From a virus (taxonomy: Duplodnaviria; Heunggongvirae; Uroviricota; Caudoviricetes), in IMG/VR virus record IMGVR_UViG_2734482555_000011: a stretch of 48,574 bases of DNA; one strand, written 5' to 3'. The translations under genes and the position numbers were made by a program. Below, one piece after another: positions 20,075 through 48,106 of the stretch. The notes under the pieces were generated by a model. The model ran no database searches and was not told the DNA's origin. It saw only the letters and a list, made by a program, of their open reading frames with translations. Numbering within the stretch: position 1 is the first letter of the stretch; each line of letters begins with the position of its first letter.

Positions 20075-20295
20075 NNNNNNNNNNNNNNNNNNNNNNNNNN
20101 NNNNNNNNNNNNNNNNNNNNNNNNNNNNNNNNNNNNNNNNNNNNNNNNNNNNNNNNNNNNNNNNNNNNNNNNNNNNNNNNNNNNNNNNNNNNNNNNNNNN
20201 NNNNNNNNNNNNNNNNNNNNNNNNNNNNNNNNNNNNNNNNNNNNNNNNNNNNNNNNNNNNNNNNNNNNNNNNNNNNNNNNNNNNNNNNNNNNNNN
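20075..20295. other. Run of N (221 nt), masked or unsequenced
   Basis: Literal n characters; covers the endolysin 3' end and the Rz 5' end. Confidence 1.
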
Positions 20296-30051: not shown

Positions 30052-31191
30052 ATGGCTGGAAATACCCTGACCGGGTTGATCCCGACTATTTATACCGCCC
30101 TGGATGTTGTATCCCGTGAGCAGGTAGGTTTTATCCCTGCGGTAGCAAAAAACGCAAAAGCTGACGCCGCAGCAAAAGATCAGACGGTAACCGCGCCAGT
30201 TGCGCCTGAGGCGAAAACCGAAGATATCGTACCGGGGCCGTCAGCTCCGAATACCGGTGATCAAAATATTGGCACTGTTGATGTAAAAATTACTAAATCC
30301 AAAATGGCACCGGTTAAATGGAATGGTGAAGAACAACTGGCTCTTGGCCCTTCAGGGACTTACAACACCATTCTGGCTGATCAGTTCAAGCAGGCTTTTC
30401 GCGCCCTTGCAAACGAGGTTGAGGCTGATCTTGGTGCGTTGTATTTCGGTGCTTCCCGCGCCGTGGGAACCGCAGGGACAACGCCGTTTGGTGTTAAAGA
30501 TGATCTTTCTGATGCTGCTCTGGCTCGTCAGGTTCTGGAGGATAACGGCGCACCGACAACCGATCTGCAGATGGTGCTTGGCTCCACTGCCATTGCTAAT
30601 TTGCGCGGAAAACAGTCTGTATTGTTTAAAGTGAATGAATCCGGCACTGAACAGCTACTGCGTGAGGGCGTGTTGGGGCGTCTGGAGGGATTCAATATTC
30701 ACAGTTCGGCAGGTGTGAAACGAGCGCCAAAGGTTGCTGCAACTGGTTATCTCGTGAATGGAGAGAAAAAAGAAGGCGATGTTCTTATTTCCATTGATAC
30801 TGGTTCGGGGAGTATTTCTGCAGGTCAGATTGTTACGTTCGCTGGTGATCCGAATCAGTATGTTGTGGCAGCAGCGACCAGCAATCTGATTACTCTTGCA
30901 GCGCCCGGACTGCGTCAGGATCTGGCCGATGATACTGCCATCACAGTTGTTGGGGCCTTTACTGCAAATATGGCGTTTGATCGCAACGCGTTTCTGCTGG
31001 CATCCCGTACTCCGGCAATGCCGGAAGGTGGCGATAATGCTGATGATGTAATGAATGTTACGGACCCGATTTCAGGGATTACGTTCCAGATTGCACTGTA
31101 TCGTCAGTATCGCCAGGTGCGCTATGAAGTTGGACTGGCATGGGGTGTTTCATCAGTGAAGCCGGCACATGGTTGTCTGATTCTTGGTTAA
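30052..31191 (+). CDS. Major capsid protein
   Basis: Track ORF 29959..31191; start MAGNTLTGLIPTIYTAL... after AAGGA; about 379 aa; followed by a strong terminator. Confidence 0.65.
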   Translation: MAGNTLTGLIPTIYTALDVVSREQVGFIPAVAKNAKADAAAKDQTVTAPVAPEAKTEDIVPGPSAPNTGDQNIGTVDVKITKSKMAPVKWNGEEQLALGPSGTYNTILADQFKQAFRALANEVEADLGALYFGASRAVGTAGTTPFGVKDDLSDAALARQVLEDNGAPTTDLQMVLGSTAIANLRGKQSVLFKVNESGTEQLLREGVLGRLEGFNIHSSAGVKRAPKVAATGYLVNGEKKEGDVLISIDTGSGSISAGQIVTFAGDPNQYVVAAATSNLITLAAPGLRQDLADDTAITVVGAFTANMAFDRNAFLLASRTPAMPEGGDNADDVMNVTDPISGITFQIALYRQYRQVRYEVGLAWGVSSVKPAHGCLILG

Positions 31192-32988: not shown

Positions 32989-33951
32989 GTGAGTTCAGGT
33001 GCAAAGGTTATCTCGGCATTTATCCGGGAGACGGTTGCAGGCACTACGCCAGCAAGTGGTGACTGGAGTTTATTAAAACGCACAAGCTGGGGAGTAAAAC
33101 CCACCCAGAATAAAGGCGAAAATAATGAGATTGGTGGCTCCCGGATGGCTCAGGGGGCGACGCCTGGCACTGTGGATGTCGGCGGTGATGTTGGTACCAA
33201 ATTTCGCTGGGGTCAACATGATGATTTTCTTGCATCCTGTTTCGGCGCGGAATGGTCAGGCGATTCTCTGACAATGGGGAATGAGCGAATAACATTTTCT
33301 CTGGCGACCTATGCGTCCGATGTCGGAATTGCCTCTGTCGTCAGAGGAGCGCAGGTTGGCTCATGGAAAATGCAGATCCCTAACGACGGCGATATTACAG
33401 CGACCGTAACCTTTGCCGGACTGGACTGGGAATCAAAGGCCGATGATACGAATTTTATCAAAGGCGAACCTGTGGATAGTGCAGGAAAGCTACGTTATTC
33501 GTTTAAGGAGGTTTCAGCAGTAAGCCTGAATGGTGTTGCCGGAGGTAACGGTTTTTGTATCGACAGTTTTGATATTCAGTTCGATAACAAACTCCAGACA
33601 CAGCGTTGTATCGGGACTGGCTCGCCTTATGCAGGAGCAAATATTCCGACTACTTTTACACCGTCCGGTACGGTGACGCTTTCATGGTCTAAAGCCGCGT
33701 GGGAAATCTGGAGTAAAACACTGACTGGAGAAACAGTTCCGTTCAGCTTCACGCTTTCGAATGGAGAGGGGGCATACACTTTCAGTTTCCCGAAGGTTCA
33801 GGTGTCAGGTGAATGGCCTGATGGGGGTAATAGCGACATTATCCAGGTTCAATTGAGCATTACCGCAGCAGATGAAGCACCTACGATAACCAGAAAAAAA
33901 AATTCCCCGGCTGCCGTGATCGCAAAAGCCAGTGCTGAGGCGATTAGTTGA
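32989..33951 (+). CDS. Major tail (tube) protein
   Basis: 320-aa ORF with GTG start after AGGAGG, immediately upstream of the chaperone pair and tape measure. Confidence 0.6.
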   Translation: MSSGAKVISAFIRETVAGTTPASGDWSLLKRTSWGVKPTQNKGENNEIGGSRMAQGATPGTVDVGGDVGTKFRWGQHDDFLASCFGAEWSGDSLTMGNERITFSLATYASDVGIASVVRGAQVGSWKMQIPNDGDITATVTFAGLDWESKADDTNFIKGEPVDSAGKLRYSFKEVSAVSLNGVAGGNGFCIDSFDIQFDNKLQTQRCIGTGSPYAGANIPTTFTPSGTVTLSWSKAAWEIWSKTLTGETVPFSFTLSNGEGAYTFSFPKVQVSGEWPDGGNSDIIQVQLSITAADEAPTITRKKNSPAAVIAKASAEAIS

Positions 33952-33999: not shown

Positions 34000-34461
34000 A
34001 TGAGGTTATGGATGTTTATTCTTAATCAGAAAATTATCATTGGTGGAGAACGCTGGTTTACGCCAATGAAGGACTTAAAACCTGTAGACGGGTTAAAACT
34101 GTTGGTGGCAAGCAGCGATAACGATCAGTATCGCTCCCGTAATGCATTAATCCGTCGCCACATTGAGAAAATGGATGCCAGTTTGCACGTCGGAACGAAG
34201 GAGTTTGATATTTCAAAGGTTTCCGAGGTGGATTCTGTTGATGATTTACTCATTGATAATGCCGCTCGTTATCTGCTGAAAGACTGGAAAGGGGTTGGTG
34301 AACTGGTTAATGGTGTTGAGGTTGCACTGGAATATACGGCAGAACGAGGGATCGCGCTGCTTAAGCAGAATCCAGAGTTGTACTGGCAGATCCTTGCAGA
34401 AGCAGCCAGCATCGCCCAGGGTAAAGAGCAGCAGAAGCAGGATACGATAAAAAAGCCATAG
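34000..34461 (+). CDS. Tail assembly chaperone (gpG-like)
   Basis: 153-aa ORF after AGGGGGA, ending at TAG 34459-34461 just after an A_AAA_AAG heptamer; directly upstream of tape measure. Confidence 0.65.
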   Translation: MRLWMFILNQKIIIGGERWFTPMKDLKPVDGLKLLVASSDNDQYRSRNALIRRHIEKMDASLHVGTKEFDISKVSEVDSVDDLLIDNAARYLLKDWKGVGELVNGVEVALEYTAERGIALLKQNPELYWQILAEAASIAQGKEQQKQDTIKKP

Positions 34462-34769
34462 CTGCCCAGCGGTGGTTATCGGAGTTCGGGGGAGAAAGGG
34501 GGGAAAAGGCAAGATGGAAGCGAGAAAAACTCAGGTTGCCACCGATACCGGAACCAGAAATAGACCCGGTGCTTAAGGAGTTGTTGTACGCCTATTCGGT
34601 AATATCCCGTGCCCGACGTTATGCTGGAATGGCTGGGGTGCCTTTGCCTTTATCTCTGACAGAGATAAATGAATATTTAGCCACTCATCCGGTATTGATT
34701 GAGCGCGATGAATTTGAAGCAGTGATCTTTGCACTGGATGACCAGTATTTTCAGGAGCAGTGTGTGTAG
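34000..34769 (+). CDS. Tail assembly chaperone fusion (gpGT-like) by -1 frameshift at 34449-34455
   Basis: Slippery heptamer A AAA AAG at 34449-34455 in the G frame; the -1 frame is open from 34425 to TAG at 34767-34769 (track ORF 34536..34769 is its ATG-initiated tail). Confidence 0.55.
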
Positions 34770-34934
34770 TTGTTAATTACGTACACTCTGTTACAGAGAT
34801 GTGATGGTGTCTTTAATTAAATCGATGATGCTCCTGGAGAAAAGCATTGCGTGGCCTCGTAATCGCTATATCTACTATTATGTCGCCTGAAACCCACTTC
34901 GCGGTGGGTTTTTTGTTGTCAGGAGTTTTAATAA

Positions 34935-37900
34935 ATGGCAGAGCAAACCTCGCGTCTCGCAATAATTATTGATAGCACTGGAGCGAAAAATAATGCTGAC
35001 AATCTGACCTCCTCATTAGTCAAAATGACGCAGGCTGGGGAAACTGCTGCAAATAGCGCAGGGAAAGTGACTAAGGCAACAGAAGATGAGAAGAACGCGC
35101 TCGCAAAATTAAAAGCAGCTATTGATCCAGTTGGTGCCGCAATTGATACTGTCGGTCGACGCTATTCTGAATTAAAGAAATTTTTCGATAAAGGGCTTAT
35201 TGATAAAGAAGAATATGAATTTCTTGTCCGTAAACTTAATGAAACCACAGAGGAATTGAGCGGGGTTGCGCAAGCGCAGAGAGAAGCCGAGAAGGCCGGA
35301 AAACTTGCTGCCGCCCAGCAGGAAGCGCAGGCTCAGGCCTTTCAAAGAATGCTGGACAAGATCGACCCTCTGGCTGCGGCGCTAAGAAATCTTGAACAAC
35401 AGCATGATGAACTTAATGCTGCGTTTGCATCCGGGAAAATAAATGGTTCTCAGTTTGAGAATTATAGCCGAAAAATACAGGAAACACGGCGAGAGCTTAC
35501 CGGAGAGGCTCAGGCAGAGCGAGAAGCAGCAAAAGCGCATGATGAACAGGTTGTTGCTTTGCAACGTCTGATTGCTCAACTTGATCCTGTCGGAACTGCT
35601 TTTAATCGTCTGGTAGAACAACAGAAACAGCTCAATGAAGCAAAAGCTAAGGGGATGCTTTCTCCTGAAATGTATGAGGAGCTTTCTGGAAAACTTCGTG
35701 CTATGCGGAGTGAGCTTGAGGTTACTCAATCACAATTAAGCAAAACCGGAATGTCGGCAAAACAAACGGCTTTTGCTATGCGCATGTTGCCTGTACAAAT
35801 GACGGATATTGTTGTTGGGTTGTCCACTGGTCAGTCGCCATTTATGGTGTTAATGCAGCAGGGCGGCCAGCTAAAAGATATGTTCGGTGGGATTGGCCCG
35901 GCGATCAAAGGTGTAGGTTCTTATGTGCTGGGATTAATTAATCCTTTTACCCTGGCCGCAGCAGCCGTTGGGGTCTTAGGACTGGCTTACTATAAAGGCT
36001 CTCAGGAGCAGGACGAATTTAATAAATCTCTTATTCTTACCGGAAATCAGTTGGGGACAACCAGCGGGCAATTGGGCGATATAGCTCAACGTGCCGGGAA
36101 TGCGGCTGATTCGACAACTGGTGCTGCGGCGGCAGTATTAAATCAGCTTGTGCGTTCGGGAAAGGTAGCGAGCAGTTCGCTGGAGCAAGTGACGACAGCG
36201 ATAGTAAAAACGAGCGAAGTAACAGGAATATCAACCGAACAACTGGTTAATGACTTCAATGAAATTGCAAAGGATCCTGTCAGTGCCATATCAAAACTTA
36301 ATGATCAGTACCATTTTCTGACACTTGCGACTTATAACCAGATTAAGGCGCTACAGGATGAAGGGAACCAGCAGGAGGCCGCCCGCATTGCGACAGAAGA
36401 ATACTCATCCTCAATGATCCAGCGCACCAACCAGATTAAAGAAAATCTTGGTTATCTTGAGACTGCATGGAAAGCTGTCGCAGACTCCGCAAAATGGGCA
36501 TGGGATTCCATGCTGGATATTGGCCGTGAGGCCTCCCTTGATCAAAAAATCTCAGATGTTCTCCGTCAAATTGATGAAATAGAAAAAAATACCCGACCCG
36601 GAGTTTTCGGGTTAGGTGGCATTGGAGATGGCGGAGCTCAAAATAAAAGGCTGGCACGATTAAAGCAGCAATTGGGCGTACTTCAAGCAGAAAAAATTGC
36701 TCAGGACGTACTAAATTCATCAATAAACGATTACAACAAGCGACAACAGGAAGGAATTGAACTCAGACAGAGAGCAGATGCCTTTTCAAAACAATATCAG
36801 ACCCGGGAGCAGCAGAGAGCTAGTGAACTTGCAAAACTGGAAAAGCTAAAGAATCAGTATTCAAAGGAAGAATATAATAATCTTATCGCTCAAATAAATG
36901 AGCGTTATAAAGATCCAAAGCAACCAAAGGCGAAAGGTTATTCTGATGATGCAGCCCAACGAATGATTGATCATCTGAATCAACAGAATGCGTTACTAAG
37001 TTCACAAGCTGAGTTGACCGTTAAATTAAGTTCCTCTGAACAGGAACTGGTTAAGTGGCGTCAGCGGATTGCCGACCTAGAGTCACGACCATCATCGAAA
37101 TTAACCCAGGATCAGAAATCGCTTCTCTTACACCGGGAAGAAATAACCACGTTGATGGAGAAAAATGTTGCGATTGAAAAAAATAACAGGCTAATCAAGG
37201 AATCCGCCGAAATAACAGCATGGCGTGATTCATTGCAGGCTTCGATTGATAATCGTCAGCAGGGGTATGATATTCAGATTGCTGGTTATGGGGTTGGCGA
37301 TAAAAATCAGCAACGCCAGCAGGAATTACTGCGGATTGAACATGGATATAACAATCAGCGTCTGCAACTTGAACGTGACTATGCAGATAAATCCCGTGGA
37401 ATGTCAGATCATGTTTTTCAAGAGAAAATGCAGGCTCTGAATGATGCTCTGGAACGGGAAAAAGAAATTGTCAGACAGAAAAACGAGCAGCTCGATATTC
37501 AGGCAGGAGACTGGGTTAGTGGTGCCTCCCAGGGATTCAATAACTGGCTGGATGACACTAAGGATATCAGTGAGCAGATAAAATCAACCACGACTCAGAT
37601 GTTTGATGGGATGACCGATGCGCTGGGTGATTTTGTCACGACAGGCAAGGCAAATTTTCGTTCTTTCGCTACTTCCGTGATTTCGGATCTTAGTCGAATA
37701 GCATTAAAGGCTTCAATTACTGGGATTTTCGACAGCATTAGTAACAGTTCTTCTGGGGGGATTTTAGGAACTATCGGGAGTGCTATTAGTAAATTTATTC
37801 CGAATGCAAAGGGCGGTGTTTATGAGTCTCCGTCATTGAGCACGTATTCGAACGGTATTTATGATTCCCCGCAATTTTTTGCTTTTGCAAAAGGGGCTGG

Positions 37901-38168
37901 TGTTTTTGGTGAGGCTGGACCGGAAGCCATTATGCCATTAACACGAACTTCCGATGGTTCTCTTGGTGTCAGAGCTATTAATAGTAAAAGTGGTAATGGA
38001 GGCGGAGATATTACCTATGCCCCTGTATACCAAATCACTATTCAAAATGACGGCCAGAATGGAGAGATTGGCCCTCAGGCAATAAAAGCACTTATGGGGA
38101 TGGTTGATCAGCGGGTGCAGGGCAATCTGTTAAATATGCGACGTGATGGGGGAATGTTAAGTGGCTAA
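34935..38168 (+). CDS. Tail tape measure protein
   Basis: 1077-aa ORF with long coiled-coil N-terminal half and glycine-rich C-terminal region, in canonical position. Confidence 0.85.
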
Positions 38169-39086: not shown

Positions 39087-39336
39087 NNNNNNNNNNNNNN
39101 NNNNNNNNNNNNNNNNNNNNNNNNNNNNNNNNNNNNNNNNNNNNNNNNNNNNNNNNNNNNNNNNNNNNNNNNNNNNNNNNNNNNNNNNNNNNNNNNNNNN
39201 NNNNNNNNNNNNNNNNNNNNNNNNNNNNNNNNNNNNNNNNNNNNNNNNNNNNNNNNNNNNNNNNNNNNNNNNNNNNNNNNNNNNNNNNNNNNNNNNNNNN
39301 NNNNNNNNNNNNNNNNNNNNNNNNNNNNNNNNNNNN
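39087..39336. other. Run of N (250 nt), masked or unsequenced
   Basis: Literal n characters across the L/K junction. Confidence 1.
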
Positions 39337-40559: not shown

Positions 40560-43500
40560 ATGGGTAAAGGCAGCAGTAAGGGGCATACCCCGCGCGAAGC
40601 GAAGGACAACCTGAAGTCCACGCAGCTGCTGAGTGTGATCGATGCCATCAGCGAAGGGCCGGTTGAAGGTCCGGTGGATGGATTAAAAAGCGTGCTGCTG
40701 AACAGTACGCCGGTGCTGGACAATGAGGGGAATACCAACATCTCCGGCGTCACGGTGGTGTTCCGGGCAGGTGAGCAGGAGCAGTCACCGCCGGAGGGAT
40801 TTGAATCCTCCGGCTCCGAGACGGTGCTGGGTACGGAAGTGAAATATGACACGCCGATCACCCGGACCATCACGTCGGCAAACATTGACCGACTGCGTTT
40901 TACCTTCGGTGTACAGGCACTGGTGGAAACCACCTCAAAGGGAGACAGGAATCCGTCTGAAGTTCGCCTGCTGGTTCAGATACAGCGTAACGGTGGCTGG
41001 GTGACGGAAAAAGACATCACCATTAAGGGCAAAACCACCTCGCAGTATCTGGTCTCGGTGGTGGTGGATAACCTGCCTCCGCGCCCGTTCAGTATCCGGA
41101 TGCGCAGGATGACACCGGACAGCACCACAGACCAGCTGCAGAACAAAACGCTCTGGTCGTCATACACCGAAATCATCGATGTGAAACAGTGCTACCCGAA
41201 CACTGCACTGGTCGGCGTACAGGTGGACTCGGAGCAGTTCGGCAGCCAGCAGGTGAGTCGTAATTATCATCTTCGCGGGCGCATTCTGCAGGTGCCGTCG
41301 AACTATAACCCGCAGACGCGACAATACAGCGGTATCTGGGACGGAACGTTAAAACCAGCATACAGCAACAACATGGCCTGGTGTCTGTGGGATATGCTGA
41401 CCCACCCGCGCTACGGCATGGGGAAACGTCTTGGTGCGGCGGATGTGGACAAATGGGCGCTGTATGTCATCGGCCAGTACTGCGACCAGNNNNNNNNNNN
41501 NNNNNNNNNNNNNNNNNNNNNNNNNNNNNNNNNNNNNNNNNNNNNNNNNNNNNNNNNNNNNNNNNNNNNNNNNNNNNNNNNNNNNNNNNNNNNNNNNNNN
41601 NNNNNNNNNNNNNNNNNNNNNNNNNNNNNNNNNNNNNNNNNNNNNNNNNNNNNNNNNNNNNNNNNNNNNNNNNNNNNNNNNNNNNNNNNNNNNNNNNNNN
41701 NNNNNNNNNNNNNNNNNNNNNNNNNNNNNNNNNNNNNNNNNNNNNNNNNNNNNNNNNNNNNNNNNNNNNNNNNNNNNNNNNNNNNNNNNNNNNNNNNNNN
41801 NNNNNNNNNNNNNNNNNNNTTGACCCGGATAACGGCTGGGAGACGGCGACAGAGCTTGTGGAGGATACGCAGGCCATTGCCCGTTACGGTCGTAACGTCA
41901 CGAAGATGGATGCTTTTGGCTGTACCAGCCGGGGGCAGGCACACCGCGCCGGGCTGTGGCTGATTAAAACAGAACTGCTGGAAACGCAGACCGTGGACTT
42001 CAGCGTGGGCGCAGAAGGGCTTCGCCATGTGCCGGGCGATGTCATTGAAATCTGTGATGATGACTATGCGGGTATCAGCATCGGCGGGCGCGTGCTGGCG
42101 GTAAACAGCCAGACCCGGACGCTGACGCTCGACCGTGAAATCACGCTGCCATCCTCCGGTACCATGCTGATAAGCCTGGTTGACGGAAGTGGCAATCCGG
42201 TCAGCGTGGAGGTTCAGTCCGTCACCGACGGCGTGAAGGTGAAAGTGAGCCGTGTTCCTGACGGCGTTGCTGAATACAGCGTGTGGGGGCTGAAGCTGCC
42301 GACGTTGCGCCAGCGCCTGTTCCGCTGTGTGNNNNNNNNNNNNNNNNNNNNNNNNNNNNNNNNNNNNNNNNNNNNNNNNNNNNNNNNNNNNNNNNNNNNN
42401 NNNNNNNNNNNNNNNNNNNNNNNNNNNNNNNNNNNNNNNNNNNNNNNNNNNNNNNNNNNNNNNNNNNNNNNNNNNNNNNNNNNNNNNNNNNNNNNNNNNN
42501 NNNNNNNNNNNNNNNNNNNNNNNNNNNNNNNNNNNNNNNNNNNNNNNNNNNNNNNNNNNNNNNNNNNNNNNNNNNNNNNNNNNNNNNNNNNNNNNNNNNN
42601 NNNNNNNNNNNNNNNNNNNNNNNNNNNNNNNNNNNNNNNNNNGCTGACAGTCCGGGCGGTAAATGCCTGGGGACAGCAGGGCGATCCGGCGTCGGTATCG
42701 TTCAGGATTGCCGCACCGGTAGCACCGTCGCGGATTGAGCTGACGCCGGGCTATTTTCAGATAACTGCCACGCCGCATCTTGCGGTTTATGATCCGACGG
42801 TACAGTTTGAGTTCTGGTTCTCGGAAACGCGGATTACCGATATCAGGCAGGTTGAAACCACAGCCCGCTACCTTGGCGCGGGGCTGTACTGGATAGCCGC
42901 CAGTATCAATATCAAACCGGGCCATGATTATTACTTTTATATCCGCAGTGTGAACACCGTTGGCAAATCGGCATTCGTGGAGGCCGTCGGTCGGGCGAGC
43001 GATGATGCGGAAGGTTACCTGGATTTTTTCAAAGGCAAGATAACCGAATCCCATCTCGGTAAAGAGCTGCTGGAAAAAGTTGATCTGACGGAGGATAACG
43101 CCAGCAGACTGGATGAGTTTTCGAAAGAGTGGAAGGACGCTAACGATAAATGGAATGCGATGTGGGGCGTCAAAATTGAGCAGACCAAAGACGGCAAACA
43201 TTATGTCGCGGGTATTGGCCTCAGCATGGAGGACACGGAGGAAGGCAAGCTGAGCCAGTTTCTGGTTGCCGCCAATCGTATCGCGTTTATTGACCCGGCA
43301 AACGGGAATGAAACGCCGATGTTTGTGGCGCAGGGCAACCAGATATTCATGAATGACGTGTTCCTGAAGCGCCTGACAGCCCCCGCCATTACCAGCGGTG
43401 GCAGTCCTCCGGTATTTTCCCTGACATCAGACGGAAAGCTGACCGCTAAAAATGCGGATATCAGTGGTAGTGTGAATGCGAACTCAGGAACGCTCAACAA

Positions 43501-44060: not shown

Positions 44061-44867
44061 ATGCGTAAAGTTTGTGCCGCCATTTTGTCCGCAGCCATTT
44101 GTCTGGCCGTATCCGGTGCGCCTGCATGGGCGTCTGAACATCAGTCCACGCTGAGCGCGGGGTATCTTCATGCCCGGACCAACGTTCCCGGCAGTGATGA
44201 TCTGAACGGGATTAACGTGAAATACCGTTATGAGTTTACGGATACGCTGGGGCTGGTGACGTCATTCAGCTATGCAGGAGACAAGAATCGCCAGCTGACC
44301 CGTTACAGCGATACCCGCTGGCATGAAGATTCCGTGCGTAACCGCTGGTTCAGCGTGATGGCGGGGCCGTCTGTGCGCGTGAATGAATGGTTCAGCGCGT
44401 ATGCGATGGCGGGTGTGGCTTACAGCCGTGTGTCGACTTTCTCCGGGGATTATCTCCGCGTAACTGACAACAAGGGGAAAACGCACGACGTGCTGACCGG
44501 AAGTGATGACGGTCGCCACAGCAACACGTCTCTGGCGTGGGGAGCTGGCGTGCAGTTTAACCCGACCGAATCCGTGGCCATTGATATTGCTTATGAAGGC
44601 NNNNNNNNNNNNNNNNNNNNNNNNNNNNNNNNNNNNNNNNNNNNNNNNNNNNNNNNNNNNNNNNNNNNNNNNNNNNNNNNNNNNNNNNNNNNNNNNNNNN
44701 NNNNNNNNNNNNNNNNNNNNNNNNNNNNNNNNNNNNNNNNNNNNNNNNNNNNNNNNNNNNNNNNNNNNNNNNNNNNNNNNNNNNNNNNNNNNNNNNNNNN
44801 NNNNNNNNNNNNNNNNNNNNNNNNNNNNNNNNNNNNNNNNNNNNNNNNNNTCGGTTATAAATTCTGA
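44061..44867 (+). CDS. lom: Lom-like outer membrane protein (Ail/Lom family), with internal N run
   Basis: Signal peptide MRKVCAAILSAAICLAVSGAPAWA, then beta-barrel-like sequence resembling lambda Lom as recalled; C-terminus ...GYKF after the N block. Confidence 0.75.
   Translation: MRKVCAAILSAAICLAVSGAPAWASEHQSTLSAGYLHARTNVPGSDDLNGINVKYRYEFTDTLGLVTSFSYAGDKNRQLTRYSDTRWHEDSVRNRWFSVMAGPSVRVNEWFSAYAMAGVAYSRVSTFSGDYLRVTDNKGKTHDVLTGSDDGRHSNTSLAWGAGVQFNPTESVAIDIAYEGXXXXXXXXXXXXXXXXXXXXXXXXXXXXXXXXXXXXXXXXXXXXXXXXXXXXXXXXXXXXXXXXXXXXXXXXXXXXXXXXXXXXGYKF
44601..44850. other. Run of N (250 nt), masked or unsequenced
   Basis: Literal n characters inside lom. Confidence 1.
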
Positions 44868-47856: not shown

Positions 47857-48106
47857 NNNNNNNNNNNNNNNNNNNNNNNNNNNNNNNNNNNNNNNNNNNN
47901 NNNNNNNNNNNNNNNNNNNNNNNNNNNNNNNNNNNNNNNNNNNNNNNNNNNNNNNNNNNNNNNNNNNNNNNNNNNNNNNNNNNNNNNNNNNNNNNNNNNN
48001 NNNNNNNNNNNNNNNNNNNNNNNNNNNNNNNNNNNNNNNNNNNNNNNNNNNNNNNNNNNNNNNNNNNNNNNNNNNNNNNNNNNNNNNNNNNNNNNNNNNN
48101 NNNNNN
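47857..48106. other. Run of N (250 nt), masked or unsequenced
   Basis: Literal n characters across the stf/tfa junction. Confidence 1.

Follow-up and report, generated by a model that had tools for sequence, protein, structure and literature searches.

A probable programmed -1 frameshift for the tail assembly chaperones G and GT of a Rac-like lambdoid siphophage or prophage

Known frameshift systems and the window locus

The dnaX gene of Escherichia coli (E. coli) shifts at about 50%, and its slip site is flanked by a Shine-Dalgarno-like element on the upstream side and by a stem-loop on the downstream side. In the G/GT class of tail assembly chaperones, G and GT are reportedly made at a fixed ratio, with both proteins being needed for tail assembly and both being absent from virions. 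The G/GT pair of phage lambda belongs to this class (Levin et al. 1993; Xu et al. 2004, 2013, 2014), and its products are found at about 30:1 (PMC5009743). In the present work, a window of 48,574 nucleotides (nt) was analyzed, that is, the whole stretch of the virus record IMGVR_UViG_2734482555_000011, in which two open reading frames, G and T, lie between the tail tube and tape measure genes. Judging from the sequence, this locus is very probably (a probability of roughly 0.9) a programmed -1 frameshift, which would yield the G and GT tail assembly chaperones of a Rac-like lambdoid siphophage or prophage.

The window locus and the lambda system are alike in their position between the tube and tape measure genes, in a -1 shift near the end of G, in a T part of about 100 residues that has no start of its own, and in having no evident RNA stimulator. 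The lambda heptamer, G GGA AAG, also occurs in some relatives of the window locus at the same codons. The two systems differ in the heptamer of the window itself, which is A AAA AAG, and in the protein family, which is PHROG 313/1189; no sequence match to the lambda-type G or T families was obtained in Pfam or NCBIfam scans. The identical A AAA AAG is found in E. coli dnaX, where it is decoded by a single tRNA-Lys (PMC5009743). Unlike dnaX, the window site does not have the makeup of a stimulated cassette, as its 4-nt AGGA lies 6 nt away and is not conserved, and its adjacent hairpin has a 0-nt spacer, compared with 5-6 nt for the dnaX stem-loop. The logic of the products is also reversed, since the shift would lengthen the protein at the window locus. 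In having no supported stimulator, the site resembles the low-level lambda G/GT shift rather than dnaX.

A distant homologue is present in Acinetobacter phage vB_AbaS_TRS1 (NC_031098, TRS1_18/19), whose chaperone has been deposited as a joined coding sequence (CDS). Its T is 36% identical to that of the window (expectation value, E, of 1e-12), and its G is aligned by hhalign with an E of 2.9e-5; in this profile alignment, the TRS1 slip site falls into the same columns as that of the window. The TRS1 site differs in being G GGA AAG, in having the G stop 78 nt downstream, and in coming from a phage of another host genus. A structure of a tail assembly chaperone is on record for HK97 (2OB9, Pell et al. 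2013, as cited in PMC5313236). A sequence search of solved structures gave nothing that matched G or T.

Slip site and reading frames in the window

The elements of the locus are as follows.

34012..34461, + strand: gene G, tail assembly chaperone of 149 amino acids, called YdaY in databases; PHROG 313 with E 4.9e-46; invariant M1
34425..34461, + strand: overlap of 37 nt in which both frames are open, bounded by the -1 frame TAA at 34422-24 and the G stop TAG at 34459-61
34449..34455, + strand: slippery heptamer A AAA AAG (X XXY YYZ) in the G frame, at the same aligned codons in relatives
34455..34769, + strand: T segment of 104 codons plus TAG in the -1 frame; PHROG 1189 with E 1.4e-36; no conserved start

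The initial annotation had placed A AAA AAG at 34449-34455 in the G frame, and direct reading of the plus strand returns precisely these coordinates. The zero-frame codons are AAA (34450-52) and AAG (34453-55), and the context reads CAG GAT ACG ATA AAA AAG CCA TAG, so a single sense codon, CCA, stands between the heptamer and the G stop. Translation likewise bears out an open -1 frame between 34425 and 34769, which ends with TAG at 34767-69 and would add 104 residues where about 105 had been given. Beyond 34461, the zero frame is closed repeatedly. A -1 slip would thus swap the last residue of G for 104 new ones and turn G of 149 amino acids into GT of 252, counted from the conserved ATG at 34012.

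As both frames are open solely at 34425..34461, any shift must fall within this overlap, in which A AAA AAG is the only canonical heptamer. The letters AAAAAAG are not rare by themselves, with 25 copies on both strands of the window compared with 15 +/- 4 in shuffles. When the window was surveyed for in-frame X XXY YYZ heptamers (Y being A or T) with frames that are open for at least 100 codons upstream, 35 sites were obtained, and at two of them, 34449 and 30625, the -1 frame reaches at least 50 codons beyond the zero-frame stop. The combination of an in-frame heptamer with a long -1 extension is rare in the window.

The second of these candidates, TTTAAAG at 30625, was rejected as an artefact, since its zero frame is an alternative frame within the major capsid gene. 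This alternative frame is open for 114 codons (30287-30631) and ends at TTTAAAG, where the -1 frame is the capsid frame itself; the open frame was judged to be due to chance.

Chaperone homology and gene order

The ATG at 34012 is preceded by GAGG 6 nt upstream and is conserved, with M1 being invariant among homologues; an alternative ATG lies further upstream at 34000, from which the open reading frame is listed. G matches PHROG 313, annotated as tail assembly chaperone, at profile positions 15-149 of 258. T matches PHROG 1189 and also, weakly, the C-terminal part of PHROG 313. When the conceptual fusion (...QDTIKK/AIAAQRW..., the slash marking the junction) was compared with PHROG 313, a single stretch running across the junction was matched (positions 20-246, E 8.2e-51). 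This single-stretch match and its improved score indicate that the PHROG 313 profile was built from G-T fusion products and that the window locus is collinear with them.

In Pfam, no match was obtained for G, and T reached Phage_TAC_18 with an E of 4.7e-4 and 20.7 bits, which is below the cut-off of 27. No NCBIfam model matches G or T. A fold search with G among predicted viral structures gave tail or tape-measure chaperones as the named top matches (E 8e-5 to 6e-2). The model of T (pLDDT, predicted local distance difference test, of 77.5) is a helical bundle with fold matches that are generic only.

According to PHROG scans, the genes are ordered as major head protein, head-tail adaptor, head closure, tail completion, tail terminator, tube, G, T, tape measure, and M-like minor tail protein. 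PHROG and RefSeq annotation of the flanking genes shows that two open reading frames lie between the tube and tape measure genes, as the G/GT class requires. The two neighbours are the following.

32989..33951, + strand: tail tube (major tail) gene, upstream neighbour, 320 amino acids; PHROG 290 with E 3e-112; RefSeq 'phage tail tube protein'
34935..38168, + strand: tape measure gene, downstream neighbour, 1077 amino acids; PHROG 24 with E 0; RefSeq 'phage tail tape measure protein'

The T and tape measure genes are separated by a gap of 165 nt, which contains a terminator-like hairpin followed by a T run (GAAACCCACTTCGCGGTGGGTTTTTTG, 34889-34912) at 23 nt before the tape measure start codon. 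This hairpin is a weak match to the 3' end of the Rfam family sroH. The Klebsiella (L003 2404-3239) and Pseudomonas (L005 2250-3507) relatives carry between two and five additional small genes at this place, including one annotated as a membrane protein, where the window has only the gap. Six runs of N (221-330 bases each) are present in the window, at 20075-20295, 39087-39336, 41490-41819, 42332-42642, 44601-44850, and 47857-48106; part of what they mask belongs to the tail tip genes that follow the tape measure gene.

Conservation of the frame and the slip site in relatives

For comparison, 178 related loci were gathered from viral contigs, from annotated phages, and from genomes taken at one per species. 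Distant viral loci were not retrieved with single-protein queries (P0119 and the Gungnir39 G protein gave nothing), but they were reached when an alignment headed by a distant sequence served as the query. A joint MAFFT alignment of fusion, G-only, and T-only proteins put the tails of G onto T, and the two domains were therefore modelled separately.

According to tblastn, 177 of the 178 loci have the T homologue in the -1 frame with respect to G, the exception being one contig with homopolymer indels. This set includes E. coli, Shigella, Citrobacter, Klebsiella, Raoultella, Siccibacter, Serratia, Pectobacterium, Dryocola, Erwinia, Pseudomonas, and Acinetobacter phages. The slip site is found at G codons 146-148 in every locus, with the G stop following 0, 3, 21, 75, or 105 nt further on and with overlaps of 34 to 244 nt. 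Among 81 distinct haplotypes of 456 nt, which were drawn from 174 loci, these three codons read GTA/ATA-AAA-AAG in 75, GTG-GGA-AAG in five, and GTG-GGG-AAG in one, so that the heptamer takes the form A AAA AAG 75 times and G GGA AAG five times. In the literature, both of these heptamers are described as strongly prone to shifting in E. coli (PMC5009743). Codon 146 changes at its wobble base together with codon 147 (GTA/ATA versus GTG), by which the X XXY pattern is kept. Furthermore, synonymous positions are frozen at the site, as codon 148 is AAG in 81/81 haplotypes and Lys147 is AAA in 75/75, whereas other conserved lysine codons vary between AAG and AAA (46/32, 69/12, 68/12, and 57/14). The anatomy, homology, and conservation of the locus and the selection acting on its slip site are shown by the analysis.

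In three lineages, the canonical heptamer is missing: Erwinia phage Gungnir39 has C GCA AAG followed by TAA (L004 1986-1995), a Pectobacterium odoriferum prophage has G GGG AAG (L019 2420-2426), and the Pseudomonas phages Aurca01 and Cruim01 have G GAA AAG (L005/L006, about 1884-1890). The A AAG element, which is shifty in E. coli (PMC5009743), is kept in two of the three; a single tRNA might slip on it.

The same GT protein could in principle arise through transcriptional slippage, in which RNA polymerase would add one A to the A6 run, the resulting A7 mRNA being translated into an identical GT sequence. The six consecutive A at the site are compatible with this mechanism. Such slippage is efficient in bacteria at runs of about 9 A/T (PMC5009743), however, and relatives that carry G GGA AAG at the same codons have homopolymers of no more than three, which fits tandem tRNA slippage instead. 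The strict order of AAA and then AAG as well as the covarying upstream base are also features of X XXY YYZ sites, and we consider transcriptional slippage to be very unlikely at this locus.

A second in-frame heptamer, G GGA AAA, was observed 33 nt upstream of the main site in five relatives (L076, L078, L082, L091, and L014), which have a longer overlap. In the window, this position reads GGT AAA and creates the -1 stop TAA at 34422-24, so the second site is unavailable here.

Coding signal across the junction and the start of T

An ungapped alignment of 15 relatives was used to follow the coding signal across the junction. Upstream of the heptamer, the mean column entropies at the three codon positions of the G frame are 0.43/0.25/1.17, and this pattern holds to the last 30 nt. 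Downstream, they become 0.32/1.27/0.53, with the most variable position now being the third position of the -1 frame. The wobble periodicity thus changes phase exactly at the heptamer, which is already visible within the first 30 nt downstream. In all 14 relatives, the 26 T-frame codons just past the heptamer (AIAAQRWLSEFGGERGEKARWKREKL) contain no stop and show an identity of 65-100%, compared with an identity of about 30% and the presence of stops in the other two frames of the same stretch.

The first ATG, GTG, or TTG of the T frame in the window is TTG 34536, which lies 27 codons past the slip; among relatives, the first possible start is found at differing places, 27 to 58 codons past the slip. 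The sole conserved T-frame ATG encodes the internal methionine of an invariant YAGMAG motif. Because 27 conserved T-frame codons precede any possible start, this stretch is translatable only by ribosomes coming from G.

These observations bear directly on the idea that no recoding takes place and that T is a separate small protein with an internal start such as TTG 34536 or one of the two TTG that follow AAGGAG (34575-80), at 34581 and 34584. Deposited records do call a CDS of 61 amino acids at 34584-34769 that is preceded by AAGGAG, but the AAGGAG/TTG (34575-86) is missing in Citrobacter and Klebsiella, and neither the varying start position nor the onset of conservation and T-frame periodicity at the heptamer, well before the first possible start, agrees with such a gene. 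Since the fusion is, moreover, collinear with PHROG 313, an independent start for T appears very improbable.

Hardly credible is the view that the heptamer occurs by chance in a decaying prophage and that G and T are one open reading frame broken by a frameshift mutation, because, even if many copies are prophage remnants (K-12 Rac retains the 3' part only) and natural in-frame fusions occur (P0001), the -1 arrangement and the heptamer are kept across the 81 haplotypes and many genera, isolated phages included, and either a 35-nt deletion between repeats or homopolymer indels account for the in-frame fusions.

P0001 is the E. coli protein NB16F79_39920, a natural in-frame G-T fusion of 240 amino acids. 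Direct repeats (GCAGAAGCAG) are located at 34396-34405 and 34431-34440 of the window, and a 35-nt deletion between them reproduces P0001 exactly. Such a deletion allele would make GT only, probably with no working tails. Single-base differences in G/A homopolymers just past the heptamer were seen in several database contigs and proteins (L059, about 2530-2560; P0002, P0004, P0006, and P0010), which are otherwise as in the window. These differences are probably assembly errors, giving spurious longer 'G' proteins or fusions.

Search for stimulatory elements

One local structure was considered downstream of the heptamer.

34456..34482, + strand: local hairpin 3' of the heptamer; free energy of -11.8 kcal/mol, 0-nt spacer, unsupported as stimulator

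In a single-sequence fold of 45 nt, this hairpin is no better than shuffles (z-score of -0.16), and the same was seen in a fold of 90 nt (z-score of -0.24). RNAalifold gave a consensus of -4.3 kcal/mol for the 15 relatives without covariation, hence no conserved structure, and an Rfam scan returned only noise. On the upstream side, AGGA at 34439-42, 6 nt from the heptamer, was considered as a Shine-Dalgarno-like stimulator and rejected, as it is explained by Gln-Asp/Glu codons and is absent in the Siccibacter-like and Serratia-like relatives. No stimulator is supported, either upstream or downstream.

Programmed frameshift reading and proposed mechanism

The initial annotation had proposed that A AAA AAG joins the tail chaperone G and T frames just upstream of the tape measure gene, and synteny, homology, and conservation all support this part; the downstream structure, which it had left unevaluated, yielded no supported element in the folds, the consensus fold, or Rfam. 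The G/GT reading is favored because the gene order, the chaperone homology, the collinear fusion match, and the conserved -1 relation fit it, and also because the heptamer, in either of its two interchangeable forms, keeps an invariant position, its synonymous sites are frozen, and the periodicity switches there. A slippery X XXY YYZ inside the overlap, a -1 overlap without a conserved T start, and conservation despite divergence, which are characteristic of the class, are all found here, and membership in a curated family of tail assembly chaperones is found via PHROG 313 for G as well as for GT.

By analogy with lambda, we infer slippage, its efficiency, the synthesis of GT, and the chaperone mechanism to be as follows. 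Most ribosomes would stop at TAG 34459 and release G of 149 amino acids. A minority would slip back by one base with AAA and AAG in the P and A sites, whereupon both tRNA-Lys would re-pair on AAA AAA (34449-54) and decoding would resume at GCC 34455. The product would be GT of 252 amino acids (...QDTIKK/AIAAQRWLSEF...), which ends at 34769. As in lambda, the G part may bind the tape measure protein and the T part may recruit the tail tube protein, and the efficiency of the slip would set the fixed G:GT ratio needed for tail assembly. Because no stimulator was found, this efficiency is probably a few per cent.

We see a small chance of a less ordinary outcome, in which the heptamer would shift far above the few per cent of lambda owing to the proximity of the stop or the adjacent hairpin, with a ratio far from 30:1, or in which the ydaY-T remnant of K-12 Rac would still be expressed and frameshifted, having been domesticated.

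Distribution, annotation, and relevance

Salmonella phage SPF_0923 matches the region at 100% identity, as do prophages of many E. coli genomes, and at least 80% of it is present in 1,061 of 5,426 complete genomes. E. coli K-12 retains 34110-34800 with an identity of 100% as the Rac remnant ydaY, beside a truncated tape measure gene; both the heptamer and the complete T frame lie within the retained part. RefSeq names G 'protein YdaY' and often starts it at TTG 34102 (119 amino acids), for example in the full-length prophage of E. coli SE11; this start copies the 5'-truncated K-12 Rac gene. T is either omitted from public records, being unannotated in prophages such as that of SE11, or listed as an orphan hypothetical protein. 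Slippage is shown in no public annotation of the Rac-like prophage lineage, and the searchable library yielded no publication that connects frameshifting with ydaY or with the Rac prophage.

It is well supported that the locus adds one more member to the established G/GT class of frameshifts; in its prophage lineage, the shift is missed by public annotation. The understanding of frameshifting or of tail assembly itself is unchanged by this locus. It is a clean natural case of slippery-site selection, in which two heptamers are interchangeable, a wobble base covaries, and synonymous positions stay frozen, and it could serve as a benchmark for frameshift predictors. For a very common family of E. 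coli prophages, the annotation is corrected: "YdaY" is a tail assembly chaperone, while the "hypothetical protein" listed after it is, on the programmed frameshift reading, the frameshift-encoded T domain.
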